Part shown: in pieces, positions 28,601 through 40,222 of the stretch
How the letters are laid out: each line of letters begins with the position of its first letter
Numbering within the stretch: position 1 is the stretch's first letter
Source: Myxococcota bacterium
GTDB taxonomy: Bacteria; Myxococcota_A; UBA9160; UBA4427
Length of the DNA: 64,000 nucleotides
Reading direction: 5' to 3'
Assembly: GCA_965250285.1 (NCBI GenBank)
Contig: OZ252299.1
Location: forward strand, 2,816,001 to 2,880,000
The notes under the pieces: generated by a model
Told to the model about the DNA's origin: nothing
Databases searched by the model: none
What the model saw: the letters and a program-made list of their open reading frames with translations, nothing else
Position numbers and translations under genes: made by a program

Positions 28601-28604
<4 letters not shown>

Positions 28605-30601
28605 ACGACGCGGGCGCGGCGGCGGCGGGCGAGCAGCGCGAGCCCGGTCACGACGAGCAGGGCGGTCGTCGGCTCGGGGATCACGCGGACGTCGATCTCG
28701 GAATTGAACTCGGCGCGCCCTCCGGTCTCGGCGAACGAGACCTGCAGGATGAGAAGCTCGGCCATCTCGAGCCCAGCGGCCCCGAGCAGATCGGCCAACA
28801 GCAGCTGCGTGTCGCCGAAGAAACCATCGATCTCGTCCGGGCCTTCGAGGTCGACGTCGAGCAGATTCGCGCCATCGGCGAGCAGCAGCACAGCCATCGC
28901 GGTGCCTTCGAGATCGCTCCCGCGATAGCTGAAGTCGAGCGCGAGATCCTGGGCCGCAATCTCGCCGCTCGACGGCATCGAGAGCTCGAAGGTCGTGGTG
29001 GCCTCGAAGGGACCTGACTCGGCCGGGAGACGCCGCCAGAGATGCACCCCGAGCTCGACGATCGTATCTGCGGCGAGGAACCGCGTCGACGTCGTCGTCG
29101 CCAGATCGTTCAACCAGATCTCGCCGCGGTACGGCTGGTCATACCCTCCTGAGCTCAGAGCCCGTACGCGATGCGCGAGCTGCACAGCTTCGTCGTCGTG
29201 CGCAACGAACTCGGCGAAGTGACGCAGACCGATCGGGCCATCCTCGACCTCGCTGGTGGCGAGGGCCTGGCCCGTCTCGGACCAGATGCCGGCTGTGACT
29301 TCGGCAAACTCGCCCCACTGACTCACGGCGAGAGCCTCCGCCTCGGCCGACCACGGCGGCGAAGGATCGGCCCCGCTCCCGCCGCTCGATCGCGGTTCGT
29401 GCCAGGCGAAAGCGCCGGCCACGGTCAAACCGCGCCCCGCGTTGCGGGCCTCGGCATAGCTGGTGGCGCTGTGCGGTGAGAAGGTCTCGTCGAAGCCGCC
29501 CACCGCTTCGGCAATCGCCGTGACTCGCCCGGTGAAGAGGTCCCCATCACCGGCCGACCCGCCGTTGCCCGACGACTTCGCCACGGCCCGGGCCGCGCCG
29601 AACCGGAGCGGAAGCGTCGCATCGAGCGAAGTGGCCGAGCCCCCGGCGGCATATGCCTCGGTATCGATGGCCCCCGTCTGGTTCGAGCCGATCACTTCGG
29701 CGATCGCGTTCCCGCCCTGGTTCGCACCCGGAGCCGCGAGGGTCGTCACCGTCGTTTCACCCGTCGCCGAGACGGACAGACGCAGGTCATCGACCGACTT
29801 GTGACGCTCGAGCCGACTGACCGAGTCGCCGCCGATGTGAGCCGGTCCCGCGAGCCCTCGGTTGCCGGCTCCGACATTTTGAATGAGGTGCAAGGAGCCG
29901 GTCGTCTCGCCGTCGACTGCGTCGACGAGACTGAGATCGGAGCCCATCGAGATGAACTCGTCGATCGGGACGAACGGCTCGAAGTCGTCGGTGTACTCGG
30001 CGCTCCAGTCCCGGATCGGCCCGACGCCGCGCTCGAGCAACGCGAGCGCGCGCACGTTGCCCCCGCCCGTCGAGACCCCGCGCACCGATTCGACCTCGGC
30101 CGCGCCCGATTGCCCCCCGCCCCAGGCCGCGCCGGAGATCGCGCGCCCGATCACCTGGACGTCGCCCGCGCCCTGGGCGAAGGCCGAGACCCGCGCATCG
30201 CCGGCGCTGCCCCCGCGACTCGAGCCGTGTCCGCCCTCGGCTTCGGCGAGGATCGCGAGGGTTTCATTGCCGACGAACTCGTACGAAAGCCGCGAGACCG
30301 CATCGCCGCCGTCGCCAAAGTCACCCGGGGCACCCCCCGCGTTCTCGGGGATGCCGCTGTCACCGCCGATCGCCCGCTGCTCGAGCTCGACGAGCTCGGT
30401 CGCTTCGACATCGACGAAGAAGCTGTTCTCGACCGTCACGCTCTCGCCGTCACCGGCGTCGGCGCCGCTCGCGCCCGGCGCGCCGTCGGCGCCCTCCTCG
30501 ACGATCGTGCCGCTCACGACCTCGCCGGCGAGGGCGGGCGCCGTCGTGAACGAGAGAACGACCGTCATCAGAAGACCGAGCGTGACGATTCGAATCGGCA
30601 T
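28601..30601 (-). CDS. PEP-CTERM surface protein, Gly/Ala-rich
   Basis: Signal peptide [26 protein letters not shown]-terminus [27 protein letters not shown]. Confidence 0.88.
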
Positions 30602-30868
30602 CGAACTCCTTCTCCGATGTGGCGGCGCGAATCCACGCAACAGACCGCGCGTCCGCCGCGGCCGAACCAAGCGGCCGCGAGCCGACGTCCGCTCCGTTGA
30701 CGCACGAGCCCACCCCGCGACGCGTAGCTCCCCCCTCCAAGGTGGTGGGATTGCTCGCGATGTGGCACGCAATTGCCCGAGGCGCCGATTTCCCGCCCCC
30801 TGCGAGACCGGCTACCTGTATCCGCCGACCCATGGCCCCGATCGGGCCCGACGAGGACGCTCCGCTCG

Positions 30869-34499: not shown

Positions 34500-34695
34500 A
34501 GACACGCGAAACGGTCCGAGGCGGGGCAAACGCCGTATACCGAATACAGGCGTGCGCTCCGCGGGAAACCGGTGTGAATCCGGTGCGAGCCCGTCGCTGT
34601 AACCGGGGACGACCCGCAGACCAATGCCACTGGCCGAAACGGCTGGGAAGGCCTGCGAAGTCGGTTGATCCGGAAGCCAGAAGACCGGCCCTCGA
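34500..34695 (+). promoter_or_regulatory. Cobalamin (B12) riboswitch
   Basis: Conserved blocks in order: GGGAA-ccGGTG-tg-AATCC (34563-), GCTGTAA (34596-), GCCACTG (34626-), GGGAAGGC (34645-), B12 box AAGCCAGAAGACC (34674-34686). Lies upstream of a TonB receptor operon. 5' edge is approximate. Confidence 0.95.
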
Positions 34696-34915
34696 GCGGC
34701 TTTGCGGTTCTCCGGTGCAGAGAACGTGAAGCGTGGGATGTGCGTCGATCCAGGGGCCCTGCCTCTGGCTGCGTGCTGCGCGCGCTCGACCACCCCCTCG
34801 TTTCCGACATCGACCCGAAGACCTGCATCGCCGTGACGTCGAGCGGCGGTCCGCAGGGGATCGTCGTCCACCCTCGACGCGCGCTCGGCGCAGCGCGCAG
34901 AAGGGAGCGATCCCA

Positions 34916-36523
34916 ATGCGGACGCACGCGCAATGGCTGGGGATCGGCATCGCGGCCGGTCTCATGCTCTTCTTGGCCCAGGCGACTCGACCGACACCGG
35001 CGCTGGCCGGCCCCTATGCGGGCCCGCCCTATCTCGCCGGCGACATGGTGGCCTGGGCGACCTCGGTGGCCTCGTTCGATCGAGGACCGGTCGACATCGC
35101 GGACCCGACCGGTCCGCTCGCCAGTGTCGGCACCGCCTCCGACGCGCTCGGCGCGCAGGATTCGTCGGTCGTTTCGCTCGGTGATGCCGGATCGATCACG
35201 GTGACGTTCGATGACGTGATCGGCGACGGCGCCGGTGACGACTTCGCCGTGTTCGAGAACGGTTTTCTCGCCACGGGAAGTGGCGAGATCTTCGCCGAGC
35301 TCGCACACGTCGAAGTCTCGAGCGATGGCATTCAGTTCGTTCGCTTCGCCTCGATCACGCTCGACGCGCCTCCGCCCGACGAGCGTGGCGGCTTCTCGAC
35401 CCTCGACCCCACCGACATCGACAACTTTGCGGGCGACCAGCCCGCGCCCTTCGGCACGGGGTTCGACCTCGGCGAGCTGAGCGCGCATCCGCTCGTGCTC
35501 GACGGTCAGGTCGACCTCTCTGCCATCTCACACGTGCGCCTCGTCGACGTGATCGGCGACGGCTCAACAGAGGATTCCCTCATGCAACCCATCTACGAAC
35601 CCTATCCGACCCCCTTCCCCTCTGGCGGCTTCGATCTCGACGCCGTCGGCGTCATCCACGTGCCCGAGCCGAGCACCGGCGCCGGCCTGCTCGCGGGCCT
35701 CGGCCTGTTGCTCGGCTTGCGCCGGCGCCGCACGGGCCTGGCGGCGCTCGCGACCCTCGCCTTCATGACGACGGCCATGGCCACGCCTGCGAGCGCCATC
35801 TTCGTCGACTTCGAAGACCAGGGCCTCGTGGTCGGCGAGTTCGACAACGGCTCGGGCGGCGAAGGCGGCTTCGTCTCGGGCGGCCAGACCTTCGAGAACA
35901 CCTTCACCGATACCGGCACCTTCACCTTCTGGAGCGGCTTCTCGTCGTCGGCGGTGCGCGACGTCACGACCGCCGGCTTCGGCAACCAGTACGCGGCGTA
36001 CAAGCTCGACGGCATCCCCGGCAGCGGGGCCGATGACAGCGTGGGCTACGGCGTGTACTTCCAGGGCTCCGAGCGCCTGGTGCTCAGCGAGGCGGCGGTC
36101 ATCGAGAGCGCGTTCATCACGAACACGACGTATGCCGGGCTGTCGATGCTGAACGGCGACGCGTTCGCCAAGAAGTTCGGCGGCGAGACCGGCGACGACC
36201 CCGACTTCTTCACGGTGTCGTTCATCGGCTACGACGCGCTCGACGAGATCACGGGCACCGCCGAGTTCTTCCTCGCCGACTACCGGTTCGCCGACAACAG
36301 CCTCGACTACATCATCGACGAGTGGACCGAGTTCGATCTGTCCGGACTCGGTACGGTGAGCTCGGTCGGCTTCGCGTTCGCCGGCAGCGACATCGGAGAC
36401 TTTGGCCTGAACACGCCGGCCTACTTCGCGATCGACAACATCTCGATCGTGCCCGAGCCGTCGACGGCGCTGCTGGTGGGGCTCGGCCTCCTCGGACTCG
36501 CGCGCCGGAGCCGCACCGCGTAG
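34916..36523 (+). CDS. Two-domain surface protein with internal and terminal PEP-CTERM anchors (second domain DUF4465-like); putative B12-capture polyprotein
   Basis: Signal peptide …PTPALA|G. Internal [24 protein letters not shown], then a second signal-like [26 protein letters not shown]4465-like motifs ([37 protein letters not shown]). Terminal [24 protein letters not shown]. Confidence 0.88.
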
Positions 36524-36530
36524 CGGGGCC

Positions 36531-38594
36531 GTGCTCTGGGTCTCGCCCGGCATGCGCCTGACCGGGGCGGCGGCGCTCGCCGTCGTCCCGGTCCTCGCGT
36601 TCTCGGTGGTGTCGGTCGCGACCCCCGCCAACGCGCAGGATCGGGTGCAGCCCGACGACGACCCCGAGATGGAGGTCGTGCGCGTGACGGGCATCCGCAC
36701 GGGTCGCTTCCTCGACGCGCCGAGCGCGTCGGTCACGCACATCGACCTCGAATCGGTGCGCGCCGAAGGCAAGACGATCGACGAGCTGCTGGGTGAGCAG
36801 GCGGGCGTACAGGTGCGCCGCTTTGGCGGCGCAGGCGAGCCGGCGACGCTGTCGATCCGGGGCAGCAGCGCAGCGCAGGTCGACGTGACCCTCAACGGCG
36901 TCAGCATCAACAGCCCGCTCACCGGGGGCGTCGACGTGTCGGAGCTGTGCATCGGCAACGTCGACGGTGCCTCGCTCACCCGCGGCGGTCGCGACGCGAT
37001 CGGCGGCCGCGTCGATCTGTCGAGCCCGCTCTCGACCGGCGAGCGTCAGATCATGGCCGGCGGCTCGTTCGGCTCGTTCGGCACCTGGCGGGGCGAGACC
37101 CATTTCTCGGACACCCTCGGCGTCGACGATGCGAAGCCGACAACGACCGGCGTCGATCTCGCGCTCGGCTACTGCGGCTTCAAGACCGACGGCGACTACA
37201 CCTTCCAGCGACCGGTGCAGGACAACGGCGACCAGGTCATCGAGCCCGAGCCGGCGAGCGCGAAACGCGTCAACAACGATCGCCAGAAGCACGCGGGGCA
37301 CGTCGGCTTCGGCCTGCCGATCGGCGAGCGACACCGCATCGAGCTGCGCGACTACGTCGCGTGGAAGAAGGGCGGCGTGCCGGGCCTCGACTCGGCCATC
37401 GACACGAGCCCCTTCGCCGGCCAGGATCGCAATGCGCGCGGTGAGCAGCTGACCAACGTCGCCATCCTCGACTGGCGCAGCGCCGAGGTCGGCTGGCTCG
37501 GCGACGAAGCTGCGCTCGGCGTCTACCACCACTATCAATCCGACGACTACGACAACCCCGCCGAGCCCGCGTCGGTCGAACCCGACGTCTCGATCGAGAC
37601 GCACATGCACCGCGGCGGCGTACGCTCGCTGCAGCGCTGGGTGCGCGACGCGTTCGGAGGCGTGCACGAGCTCGGCGTGCGCTTCGATGCGAGCCGCGAC
37701 GCCGTCTATTCGGACGCGGCGCTCACGGGCGACCGCGCGCGGACGAACGTCGAAGGCGACGCGACGGTGTCGTCGACCTTCTTCGGCGATCTGCTGACGG
37801 TGGCCCCCGGCCTGCGCGTCGCCTGGACCCAGGGCTTCGATCCGGCCTGGCTGCCGAGCCTCGGCGTCGTCGTGCAGCCCCTCGACTGGCTGCGCCTGCG
37901 CGGCAACGTCTACCGCAGCTGGCGCCCGCCGAGCTTCGACGAGCTCTACCACCCCGACCGCGGCTTCATCCGGGGCAACCCCGACCTCAGCGCCGAGCGC
38001 TCGATGGGCGTCGATGGCGGCCTCGACCTGATCTTCGACGCGGTCGGTCCGCTCGAGCGCCTGCGCTTCACCGTCGGTGGCTTCTACGACGAGCGCGACG
38101 ACGAGATCGTCTGGACGCAGGTGAGCCCGTGGGTCGTCGCCCCGGTCAACCTCTCCGATACCCGCTACGTCGGGCTCGAGCTCTCTGTCACCGGTGAGAT
38201 CACGCGCTGGGTCGGATTCGCGGCGAGCCACACCGAGCTCGACGCCACGCTCTCGTCGACCGATCGTCCACCGCCCGGCCGCGCCGAGCGGCAGAGCTTC
38301 GCCCGCCTGCGGATCGGCCCCGACGACGTCTGGAAGCTCGTCGGCGAGTGGCACTACACGGGCGAGATCGGCGCCTCGCTCGGCGGGCGCGTGATCTTGC
38401 CGGCACGACACGTCGGCAACGTGACCGCTTCGCTCGACGTCGCGCGCGTGGTGCCCCGGGTCTTCGACCGGGTCGTCGATTCGCTCTGGACCTACGTGGC
38501 CGTCGACAACGTCGGCGACGTCACGGCCCGGGATGCGCTGTTTGCGCCGCAGCCCGGCCGTTCACTCACGATCGGATTGGAGGCACGTTGGTGA
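36531..38594 (+). CDS. TonB-dependent outer-membrane receptor, probable BtuB-type cobalamin transporter
   Basis: Signal peptide, plug motif DELL..QAGVQVRRFGG..ATLSIRGSSAAQV.V.LNGV, RPPSFDELY, GNPDLSAERS, terminal aromatic W. Under the B12 riboswitch. Alternative start ATG 36552. Confidence 0.9.
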   Translation: MLWVSPGMRLTGAAALAVVPVLAFSVVSVATPANAQDRVQPDDDPEMEVVRVTGIRTGRFLDAPSASVTHIDLESVRAEGKTIDELLGEQAGVQVRRFGGAGEPATLSIRGSSAAQVDVTLNGVSINSPLTGGVDVSELCIGNVDGASLTRGGRDAIGGRVDLSSPLSTGERQIMAGGSFGSFGTWRGETHFSDTLGVDDAKPTTTGVDLALGYCGFKTDGDYTFQRPVQDNGDQVIEPEPASAKRVNNDRQKHAGHVGFGLPIGERHRIELRDYVAWKKGGVPGLDSAIDTSPFAGQDRNARGEQLTNVAILDWRSAEVGWLGDEAALGVYHHYQSDDYDNPAEPASVEPDVSIETHMHRGGVRSLQRWVRDAFGGVHELGVRFDASRDAVYSDAALTGDRARTNVEGDATVSSTFFGDLLTVAPGLRVAWTQGFDPAWLPSLGVVVQPLDWLRLRGNVYRSWRPPSFDELYHPDRGFIRGNPDLSAERSMGVDGGLDLIFDAVGPLERLRFTVGGFYDERDDEIVWTQVSPWVVAPVNLSDTRYVGLELSVTGEITRWVGFAASHTELDATLSSTDRPPPGRAERQSFARLRIGPDDVWKLVGEWHYTGEIGASLGGRVILPARHVGNVTASLDVARVVPRVFDRVVDSLWTYVAVDNVGDVTARDALFAPQPGRSLTIGLEARW

Positions 38595-40222
38595 TGACGA
38601 GACGATCCCTTCCCACCTTCGGCAAGCGACCGGGCGGGCGACGCCTCGTCGCGCTGTGCTGCCTCGTCCCCCTCTTGCTCGGTGGCCTCTGCGAGGGCAA
38701 GGGCAACCGCGGCGGACGGGCCGTCATCAACGAGGGCGGCGACTCCGAGTGCGCACCGCTCTTCGGCCCATTCCCGCCGGGCCTCGGTCAGCTGCCCCTG
38801 TCGGGCCGCGCGGTGATCCCGACGAGTGGGCCACAGACGCTCATCCCGTTCGAGCTGGGGGCGGCTTCGCCCGTGAACGTCGGCCCGGCCACGCCGACTT
38901 CGCTGCCGGCCGACAGCGACGGCGACGGCGACCCCGACTTCCTGCGCAGCATGGATCTCGGGTTCGGCGTCCGCACGCCGATCTTCGGCCGGCTCTCGGT
39001 GGTGCGTGAAGACCTCGTGCTGGTCAGCGCGAGCAACTATGAAGAGGTGCTGGCCTTCGATCCGGCGACGGCGACGCTCGAGACCCTGCGCGTGACCAAC
39101 CCGGACGCCTCCGGCGCGCACGATCCGGCCGATCATCCCTTCCTGCCGCCCGCCGGCACGACGGCGGACCGCACGGCGATCTCGACGCGCGTGTGCGTGC
39201 GGTCGCGCGATCCGGTCGACTCGCGCGGCGTCGCGATCGAGGCGACGTGCGACCCCGACGTGCCCAGCTTCTACACCGCCTTCACGGCAGGCCAGGCGGT
39301 GGTCGGCGATCTGCTCGTCGTCACGACGTCGAACCTCGCGCGCTCGGGCACCGGGCGATTCCATCCGGGCACAGTGCTGCTCTTCTCGTTCGACGACAGC
39401 GGCGCCCAGCCGGCCGTCGCGCCGCTCGTCGAGTCGCCCGTGCTCTTCACGACCGAGTACAACCCGACGAGCGTGACGCCCTTTCACACGGCGAACGGCC
39501 GCGCCCTCGCCCTCATCGGCAACACCGGCGCGATCCTGCTCGCGAGCGGCCCCGACTCGGTCGTGACCCCGGGCTCGATCGACGTCTTCGACGTCGCGAC
39601 GCGCCGCATCGCCGCGACGATCCCGCTCGGCCCGGCCGCGTTCGGGTTCGACGGCCTCACGATCGACCGGGCGACCGGCCTCGCGCTCGCAGGCTCTCCG
39701 ACCCAGAAGCAGATCTATGCCGTCGACCTCTCGCCACTCGACGACGAGTCGCTCTACGCCCGCACCGGGCCGCCGATCGTTCTCGACGGCAGTGACGCGA
39801 TCTACCCCGATGCGCGCATCTTCGATGGGGACACCCCCTTCGAGATCCCGCTGCTTCCGGGCGGACCCGATCCGGTCGTATGCGACGGGTCGACGAGCGT
39901 GCTCATCGGGCCCGATCGCGATGGCGACGCCGACCGGCGCGACGTGTACGTGACCGACAAGTGCGACGGCACGCTCACGATCGTCGACGTCGACCTGCGC
40001 AGCCCCGACGAGGTGCCGCTCTCACCGACGCGCTTCACCCTCGAGCGGCAGCTCGGCATCGCCTCGGCCAACGTGGCCTCGAATGCGGGCCAGGTGATGG
40101 AGCCGGGGCTCATGGTGCTCGGGCCGGCGGGCGAACAGCCCGGCGAGGACGGCCCGGCGCTCTACGTCACCATGAGCCGGCCATCCCCCGCCCTCTTCTG
40201 TGGGATCGCGCTCGACTTCTGA
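38594..40222 (+). CDS. Exported, possibly lipidated, beta-propeller-like (YncE/YVTN-type) protein
   Basis: TGATG coupling to the receptor. Hydrophobic N-region followed by Cys (LLLGGLC, atypical lipobox). SIDVFDVATRRIAATIPLG repeat-like motif, DxDxD motifs. Confidence 0.7.
   Translation: MTRRSLPTFGKRPGGRRLVALCCLVPLLLGGLCEGKGNRGGRAVINEGGDSECAPLFGPFPPGLGQLPLSGRAVIPTSGPQTLIPFELGAASPVNVGPATPTSLPADSDGDGDPDFLRSMDLGFGVRTPIFGRLSVVREDLVLVSASNYEEVLAFDPATATLETLRVTNPDASGAHDPADHPFLPPAGTTADRTAISTRVCVRSRDPVDSRGVAIEATCDPDVPSFYTAFTAGQAVVGDLLVVTTSNLARSGTGRFHPGTVLLFSFDDSGAQPAVAPLVESPVLFTTEYNPTSVTPFHTANGRALALIGNTGAILLASGPDSVVTPGSIDVFDVATRRIAATIPLGPAAFGFDGLTIDRATGLALAGSPTQKQIYAVDLSPLDDESLYARTGPPIVLDGSDAIYPDARIFDGDTPFEIPLLPGGPDPVVCDGSTSVLIGPDRDGDADRRDVYVTDKCDGTLTIVDVDLRSPDEVPLSPTRFTLERQLGIASANVASNAGQVMEPGLMVLGPAGEQPGEDGPALYVTMSRPSPALFCGIALDF

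Follow-up and report, generated by a model that had tools for sequence, protein, structure and literature searches.

How does a bacterial cell handle a single open reading frame that carries two complete sets of surface-sorting signals, one of them in the middle of the chain? Export through Sec, the positive-inside rule, the −3/−1 preference of signal peptidase I (SPase I) and the sorting of PEP-CTERM proteins by exosortases are established. The accessible text of Haft et al. (2006, PMC1569441) places the PEP-CTERM motif near the C-terminus "virtually without exception" and considers that the few copies with long tails may be non-functional. Positions 34916-36523 (+) of the window (the whole 64,000-nucleotide stretch of Myxococcota DNA that we analysed) contain such an internal motif in a single stop-free frame of 535 aa. 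An original prediction made from this sequence had described the frame as uninterrupted and had assigned coordinates to each of its elements; sequence and translation agree with it on every point.

The frame begins with a start codon, preceded by GAAGGGAG, and a first signal peptide (34916..35008) with a predicted cut at ALA|GPY. Unit 1 (35009..35659) is predicted to be a BtuH-like, B12-binding domain from a structural model, Foldseek and a profile match. It runs into an internal PEP-CTERM consisting of VPEP and a transmembrane helix (TM1, 35660..35719), and then into an RRRR cluster (35720..35731) that, as judged from the sequence, would serve both as the cytoplasmic tail of this PEP-CTERM and as the n-region of a second signal. 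The h- and c-regions of that signal (35732..35797) end in a predicted SPase I site, ASA|IFVD, which is supported by register conservation and a matrix test; an alternative cut, AMA|TPAS, lies five residues earlier within the same stretch. Unit 2 (35798..36448) is a DUF4465 (BtuJ family) domain with an NTPAYF B12-binding loop, and the frame closes with a canonical C-terminal PEP-CTERM (VPEP-TM-RRSR) and the stop codon (36449..36523; PF07589 at residues 512-533). All of these features lie on the forward strand.

The PEP-CTERM models TIGR02595 and PF07589, proposed as a check in the original prediction, each match two stretches, the internal and the terminal motif, with whole-protein scores above the cut-offs. 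The best TIGR02595 stretch is the internal one (residues 249-272). This motif has the order of PEP, transmembrane helix and basic cluster found in PEP-CTERM substrates, but it is not at the extreme C-terminus: 286 residues follow, counted from the V of VPEP, and it would become near-terminal only once SPase I has cut. Kyte-Doolittle hydropathy peaks at 1.75-2.15 around residues 7, 254, 275 and 515, and the GC3 of the junction codons is 0.98. Contigs from three runs, all of one study, span the junction without a single difference; the X1 contig, which may be the source of the window, covers the whole stretch, X2 covers 35076-36643 and X3 35631-36250, while run X5 does not reach the junction.

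Related proteins retain the junction. From 3520 matches among 8000 scored candidates we listed the best 120, the query included; the names of these homologs point to Myxococcota/Deltaproteobacteria. Among them, 106 have the order unit 1-unit 2, 10 the reverse order, and four are multi-domain proteins without the junction. The in-frame succession of PEP, TM, basic residues, TM and AxA, whose conservation the original prediction had proposed to examine, is kept in 106/106 same-order homologs and, by eye, in 10/10 reverse-order fusions, although such counts overstate universality because homolog and profile searches favour query-like proteins. Parsing succeeded for 104 of the 106; in the remaining two, inspection by eye reveals the junction. 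The parsed homologs contain a hydrophobic TM1 in 101 cases, at least two basic residues in 103 and a second hydrophobic stretch in 104. In all 106 proteins, the conserved F-E-D with which unit 2 starts is preceded at a distance of 4-6 residues by the end of an [AVSTG]-x-A motif. Counting only strict AxA at offsets 4 and 5 leaves 89/106, compared with 17.2±3.6 (maximum 31) in 1000 shuffles. The peak of AxA at offset 4 comprises 63/106 junctions, compared with 17/30 N-terminal signals of stand-alone DUF4465 proteins. Median identity to the query is 32% in the second signal and 53% and 51% in the two domains. The sequence of this signal thus drifts while AxA stays in register, which argues that its properties are kept rather than its sequence.

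The putative cleavage site was assessed with a home-made weight matrix, not SignalP, trained exclusively on 151 signal peptides taken from the N-termini of domain-1 proteins. In the query, ALA|GPYA scores highest (14.9), followed by AMA|TPAS (14.1) and ASA|IFVD (13.3); the next best site scores 2.6. The junction site ranks best from residue 60 onward in 90/106 homologs, and the median score of junction sites is 11.1, as opposed to 2.1 for terminal PEP-CTERM helices. With a basic n-region, an uncharged h-region and small residues at −3 and −1, the second signal has the features of a signal peptide, except that its position is internal instead of N-terminal.

Genome loci give a similar account of how the two units are joined. 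We took the best 80 of 190 loci found by domain words: 11 encode fusions with both the internal PEP-CTERM and the second signal, 22 encode fusions with neither, and none encodes a fusion with one alone; the remaining 47 hold split, single or tandem DUF4465 versions. Of 61 related genomes, 11 have the pair in fused form and one has it interrupted by a contig end; a further 11 loci that we examined there hold split or single versions. Several of these loci duplicate the 80-locus set, so the two sets of counts are not additive. Since both units exist as stand-alone genes, the frame has the make-up of a polyprotein: one ORF made of independent units that each bring a targeting signal.

The genetic context suggests what the two units do. 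A cobalamin riboswitch aptamer (Rfam RF00174, 95.9 bits, E 1.5e-23) lies upstream of the gene at 34507..34707 (+), and such a riboswitch is present in 14/14 related loci scanned. Unit 2 matches PF14717 (DUF4465) over residues 336-509 (E 3.7e-47, 161 bits against a cut-off of 25) as well as solved DUF4465 structures, including PDB 9HMU (E 1e-16). It also contains the HI-loop motif (N/G)TPAY of BtuJ proteins, NTPAYF in the query; a regular expression for this loop finds it in 87/106 homologs. Loops of the NTPAYF type are described as a conserved B12-binding loop in section 15 of PMC13398666, within its accessible portion. Family membership and riboswitch together suggest that unit 2 binds B12.

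Unit 1 has no match in Pfam. Its predicted structure (pLDDT 91.8) is closest in Foldseek to 8BLW_B (BtuG1; E 9.4e-5, TM 0.51) and less close to 7BIZ (BtuH2; E 0.021, TM 0.45), and its profile matches residues 382-477 of 8BLW_B (E 0.0066). This chain is the top match in both structure and profile searches, though remote (TM 0.45-0.51), and according to the accessible text of PMC10404256 it bears a C-terminal BtuH domain. We therefore read unit 1, from model and profile, as BtuH-like by remote match. BtuJ1 is stated to load B12 onto BtuH2 in vitro in the part of a review available to us (PMC13616437). Immediately downstream, 36531..38594 (+) encodes a TonB-dependent receptor with plug and barrel domains that is probably a cobamide importer with a BtuB-like role, scoring below the TIGR01779 cut-off. 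A receptor homolog adjoins the fused gene in 9/11 junction loci, with none in the flanking DNA examined of the other two. The next gene, 38594..40222 (+), encodes a conserved 542-aa protein with a signal-like N-terminus and homologs in 14/80 loci. Pfam, NCBIfam and the PDB return nothing for it; among its look-alikes in the Atlas are Lactonase/YncE clusters (0.91-0.92) with sub-threshold recognition, and a BtuG/YncE-like propeller is a possible lead only.

We consider it likely, with a probability of roughly 0.65, that the chain of BtuH-like and BtuJ units is cut by SPase I and exosortase into two separately sorted exported proteins. Signal 1 would export unit 1 through Sec, TM1 would stop transfer with RRRR staying cytoplasmic, and translocation would resume for unit 2 at the second hydrophobic stretch. 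Cleavage at ASA|I would fall to SPase I and the removal of each PEP-CTERM to exosortase, as for stand-alone proteins under the sorting model in the accessible part of PMC12188702. With the riboswitch controlling expression, both products would serve the neighbouring TonB receptor by capturing cobamides. The genome contains six exosortase matches (PF09721) above cut-off and one SPase I-like ORF by motif. The uncut chain after removal of signal 1 has a predicted mass of 52.1 kDa; SPase I would yield 26.7 and 25.4 kDa, and both cuts about 22.5 and 23.3 kDa, if exosortase cuts near PEP. Because either cut alone still yields two products, the formation of two products by some route is very probable.

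The best surviving alternative is that SPase I cuts at ASA|I while the internal PEP-CTERM stays unprocessed, so that unit 1 is kept in the inner membrane on the hairpin of TM1 and signal (~26.7 kDa) and only unit 2 is sorted by exosortase. Exact PEP occurs in 92/106 internal motifs, compared with 105/106 terminal motifs and 83/85 stand-alone domain-1 proteins, and a hairpin might hinder an intramembrane exosortase. The internal variants (FEP, AEP, VEP and others) come with longer linkers (median 68, compared with 55 residues), which suggests that some lineages may no longer undergo cutting by exosortase. Against this scenario, Glu is retained in nearly all internal variants, the window's own motif is an exact VPEP and the best TIGR02595 stretch of the protein, and a 2500-aa protein with several junctions (P0241) has exact PEP at all nine internal joints. 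For the gene in the window, we therefore consider retention of an unprocessed unit 1 unlikely.

Alternatively, SPase I may not cut at all. The chain would then span the membrane with three helices and hold both domains outside, or exosortase alone would cut and leave unit 2 with an N-terminal hairpin. The topology is self-consistent without cleavage, the direct BtuH-BtuJ fusions of the 22 loci show that tethered domains can work, and, to our knowledge, internal cutting by SPase I is little documented in bacteria. However, AxA is in register far more often than in shuffled sequences (89 against 17±4), and the junctions reach matrix scores close to those of genuine signal peptides. If the helices served only as a tether, losing both would be the simpler course, and the direct fusions indeed do without them. 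Escape from SPase I is thus improbable, and cleavage at the junction remains our preferred explanation.

It is less probable still that unit 2 derives mainly from an in-frame internal start, with the long chain as a read-through form. The original prediction had named TTG 35717, without an obvious ribosome-binding site, as such a start. It would yield a 27-aa signal peptide; the old Met, and even a translated ribosome-binding site, persist in some fusions (P0106, L189), and in two of the 11 junctions from the 61-genome set a start codon is accompanied by a Shine-Dalgarno match of 4 bases. TTG 35717, however, indeed lacks a Shine-Dalgarno sequence, whereas GAAGGGAG precedes ATG 34916. Among 12 junctions examined as a separate set, none has a Shine-Dalgarno match of at least 4 bases, three offer no in-frame ATG, GTG or TTG that would give a signal of at least 15 aa, and the positions of potential starts are not conserved. 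No conserved internal start was found in the 12 plus 11 junctions, and TTG 35717 shares this lack of conservation. Since no stop follows TM1, unit 1 can only be produced as part of the long chain, which the cell must handle in any event. Finally, although two-base changes at gene overlaps readily create such fusions in sister pairs, neither an assembly error nor a stop-codon loss that is recent, non-functional and confined to this genome is tenable, because the three runs match exactly across the junction (which also settles the consensus error that the original prediction had wished to exclude) and because 106/106 same-order homologs at ~42-65% identity, as well as 11/61 related genomes, keep the junction, which removes the stop-codon loss named there as an alternative.

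Several observations indicate how the fused genes arose. Split versions overlap at ATGA (L012, L112, L182, L188, L192), GTGA (L020) or TTGA (L181). Within one genus, fused L189 differs from split L188 by a 2-base gap just before the ATGA that brings the old start Met into frame. Similarly, L112 (split, with GGAGG followed by ATGA) is sister to the fused P0106, the linker of which retains the translated Shine-Dalgarno sequence and Met. On a 48-row tree of DUF4465 (unit 2), AU tests reject a single clade for all junction fusions (p 4.8e-6), for forward fusions (2.4e-4) and for reverse fusions (1.8e-10), and the minimum numbers of label changes on the unit-2 tree are at least 9 and 4. A single origin is thereby rejected; the result implies repeated gain and/or loss or domain exchange without telling which. 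Fusion appears to be easy and recurrent, and reversions are possible. The layout would arise by small indels at the overlapping stop and start codons of adjacent PEP-CTERM genes and would survive because both signals keep working. Such ease and recurrence favour a tolerated arrangement with two functional signals over a selected 1:1 ratio. The fixed 1:1 stoichiometry proposed originally does follow from synthesis as a single chain; as a selected function it is unsupported because split operons are common among relatives.

The same junction occurs in proteins other than the predicted B12-capture pair. The genome itself contains 68 terminal PEP-CTERM motifs and seven ORFs with an internal motif and a second signal, that is, six besides 34916-36523. 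The best downstream matrix site lies 40-84 residues past PEP in 7/7 of these ORFs, even in a frame of 4732 codons. One of them (L091, C1:1404321-1410746(+)) joins a small PEP-CTERM unit through the junction to a ~1900-aa transglutaminase-like/DUF6531/RHS protein. A second (L087, C1:960376-962082(+)) has two near-duplicate PEP-CTERM units in frame, with an unusually long basic linker (~60 aa) before the second signal, and a third (L089, C1:4479517-4482480(+)) joins a PEP-CTERM unit to a beta-helix protein without a terminal anchor. A possible eighth case (C1:1043570-1045510(-)) has a degenerate PVP-TM-RR, a long linker, a hydrophobic stretch and a Cys; its upstream unit seems short or frameshifted.

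A profile of the junction, 52 positions long, matched 731 cluster representatives at E<=0.001. The full-junction rule was passed by 128 of the best 150 profile matches, none of which is homologous to unit 1 or 2. With the junctions masked, these 128 proteins form 67 single-linkage families; the set was selected for the trait, and three members appear to be training proteins from the genome itself. P0241, from a Planctomycetales MAG, carries ten PEP-CTERMs, nine of them internal and each of these followed by an AxA-type site. Chains of 10, 6, 6 and 5 PEP-CTERM matches are seen in P0241, P0245, P0252 and P0244, respectively, with a signal-like stretch after every internal unit shown. At L170:1024-2019(+), in genome G045, an internal PEP-CTERM is followed by a lipoprotein-type signal ending, by eye, in a lipobox. 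This lipobox suggests that SPase II can serve as the second cutter; a lipobox regular expression found no case among the 128 junction proteins.

Three of the other ORFs in the genome share a different composition: L090 (C1:2966888-2970121(+)), L088 (C1:4460853-4462736(+)) and L092 (C1:456539-470737(-)) each combine a cohesin-fold PEP-CTERM leader with a large secreted cargo that has a Cys-rich dockerin-like end. The first unit of ~150 aa and the C-terminal tail of ~85 aa are common to all three and, within this genome, found only there. The modelled leader (pLDDT 93.9) has cohesins as its top Foldseek matches (E 1.1e-4, TM about 0.5). Profile comparison of the tail leads to type I dockerins (E 8.3e-6), with Pfam Dockerin_1 recognised in 1/7 members, and such a tail ends 10/10 full-length homologs. 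We see no membrane anchor at the C-terminus of the cargo. An anchored cohesin-fold unit ahead of an anchorless, dockerin-tailed cargo suits a chain that is cut. The leader is present in 42/151 genomes of the order; among 30 leader loci, 21 are fused through the junction (by eye), eight end at the PEP-CTERM and one is unclear. The cohesin-dockerin pair also occurs in split operons, so it may be inherited and is not proof of cleavage. Genomes G039, G056, G045 and G104 have 10-28 dockerin-like matches each, and three of the four are without a profile match to the cohesin-like leader, implying another anchor family in these dockerin-rich genomes.

The junction is therefore real, conserved, general and built from known parts, and its cutting into products is predicted from sequence. 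Going beyond the original prediction, the two domains become predicted B12-capture proteins and the junction a general, recurrent device. We lean towards the reading that PEP-CTERM bacteria use a general, repeatedly evolved polyprotein code. The PEP-TM-Arg tail together with the h- and c-regions of a signal would form a portable module carrying the instruction "cut here and re-export", recognised by exosortase and by SPase I or, in at least one case apparently, SPase II. Operons for surface proteins would thereby become single ORFs of up to ten products, annotated as single proteins and including modules of cohesin anchor and dockerin cargo that deliver their own tether.

Comparable logic is known from other systems. 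In the envelope polyproteins of flavi-, pesti- and bunyaviruses, an anchor helix is followed by an internal signal that is cut by the signal peptidase of the ER. The topological logic is the same as at the junction described here, which differs in belonging to bacterial chromosomal genes, in its predicted use of Sec/SPase I and exosortase, and in having arisen repeatedly from overlapping operon genes. FbcH, the cytochrome b-c1 precursor of Bradyrhizobium japonicum, is reportedly encoded by one gene and cut by signal peptidase at an internal signal sequence into two proteins. FbcH is a single fused respiratory complex without a sortase tag, whereas this junction recurs across unrelated families with up to ten units. 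As in cellulosomes, the sister polyproteins pair a cohesin-fold unit with a cargo that has a dockerin-like tail; unlike in cellulosomes, the cohesin is PEP-CTERM-tagged, occurs in a diderm and is co-translated with its presumed cargo. With PEP-CTERM/exosortase (EpsH, Xrt) sorting the gene shares the tripartite PEP-TM-basic motif, the N-terminal Sec signal, many paralogs and the exosortase genes, and it differs in that one motif lies far from the end and leads into a second signal of cleavable type. With Bacteroides BtuJ1/J2 (DUF4465), BtuH and the BtuG1-H fusion it shares the domain families, the cobalamin riboswitch and the neighbourhood of a TonB receptor (accessible parts of PMC13398666, PMC8941943, PMC10404256 and PMC13616437). 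As far as these parts describe them, BtuJ and BtuH of Bacteroides are lipoproteins encoded by separate genes or a direct fusion, in contrast to the PEP-CTERM-tagged units chained here by a sorting junction.

The openly accessible articles searched (PEP-CTERM polyprotein, fusion and cohesin-dockerin, exosortase, and bacterial internal signals) contain no description of this junction, in line with the original statement that none was known. The word "internal" is absent from PMC1569441, PMC3237569 and bioRxiv 2023.06.07.544157, and "polyprotein" from the latter two; by title, the literature retrieved on bacterial polyproteins and internal signal peptidase sites covers viral or eukaryotic cases only. 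If the chains are cut as predicted, secretory polyproteins of the kind known from viruses would be far more common in bacteria than FbcH, the one bacterial precedent known to us, suggests. The rule of a strictly C-terminal PEP-CTERM would then need revision, and many entries annotated as "large PEP-CTERM proteins" would in reality comprise several proteins each. The exosortase reaction is poorly defined as to where it cuts and whether it requires a free C-terminus, and the junction would allow it to be assayed sharply. It would likewise be a ready-made cassette with which one ORF could export several proteins in equimolar amounts. The BtuJ/BtuH cobamide relay of Bacteroides would extend to versions sorted by PEP-CTERM.

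Two further observations concern the surroundings of the motif and of the domains. The window also encodes an ordinary C-terminal PEP-CTERM protein of 723 aa at 28601-30772 (-). In L027, L031, L035, L039 and related planctomycete loci, DUF4465 and BtuH-like domains are fused directly and end, by eye, in a dockerin-like repeat instead of a PEP-CTERM.
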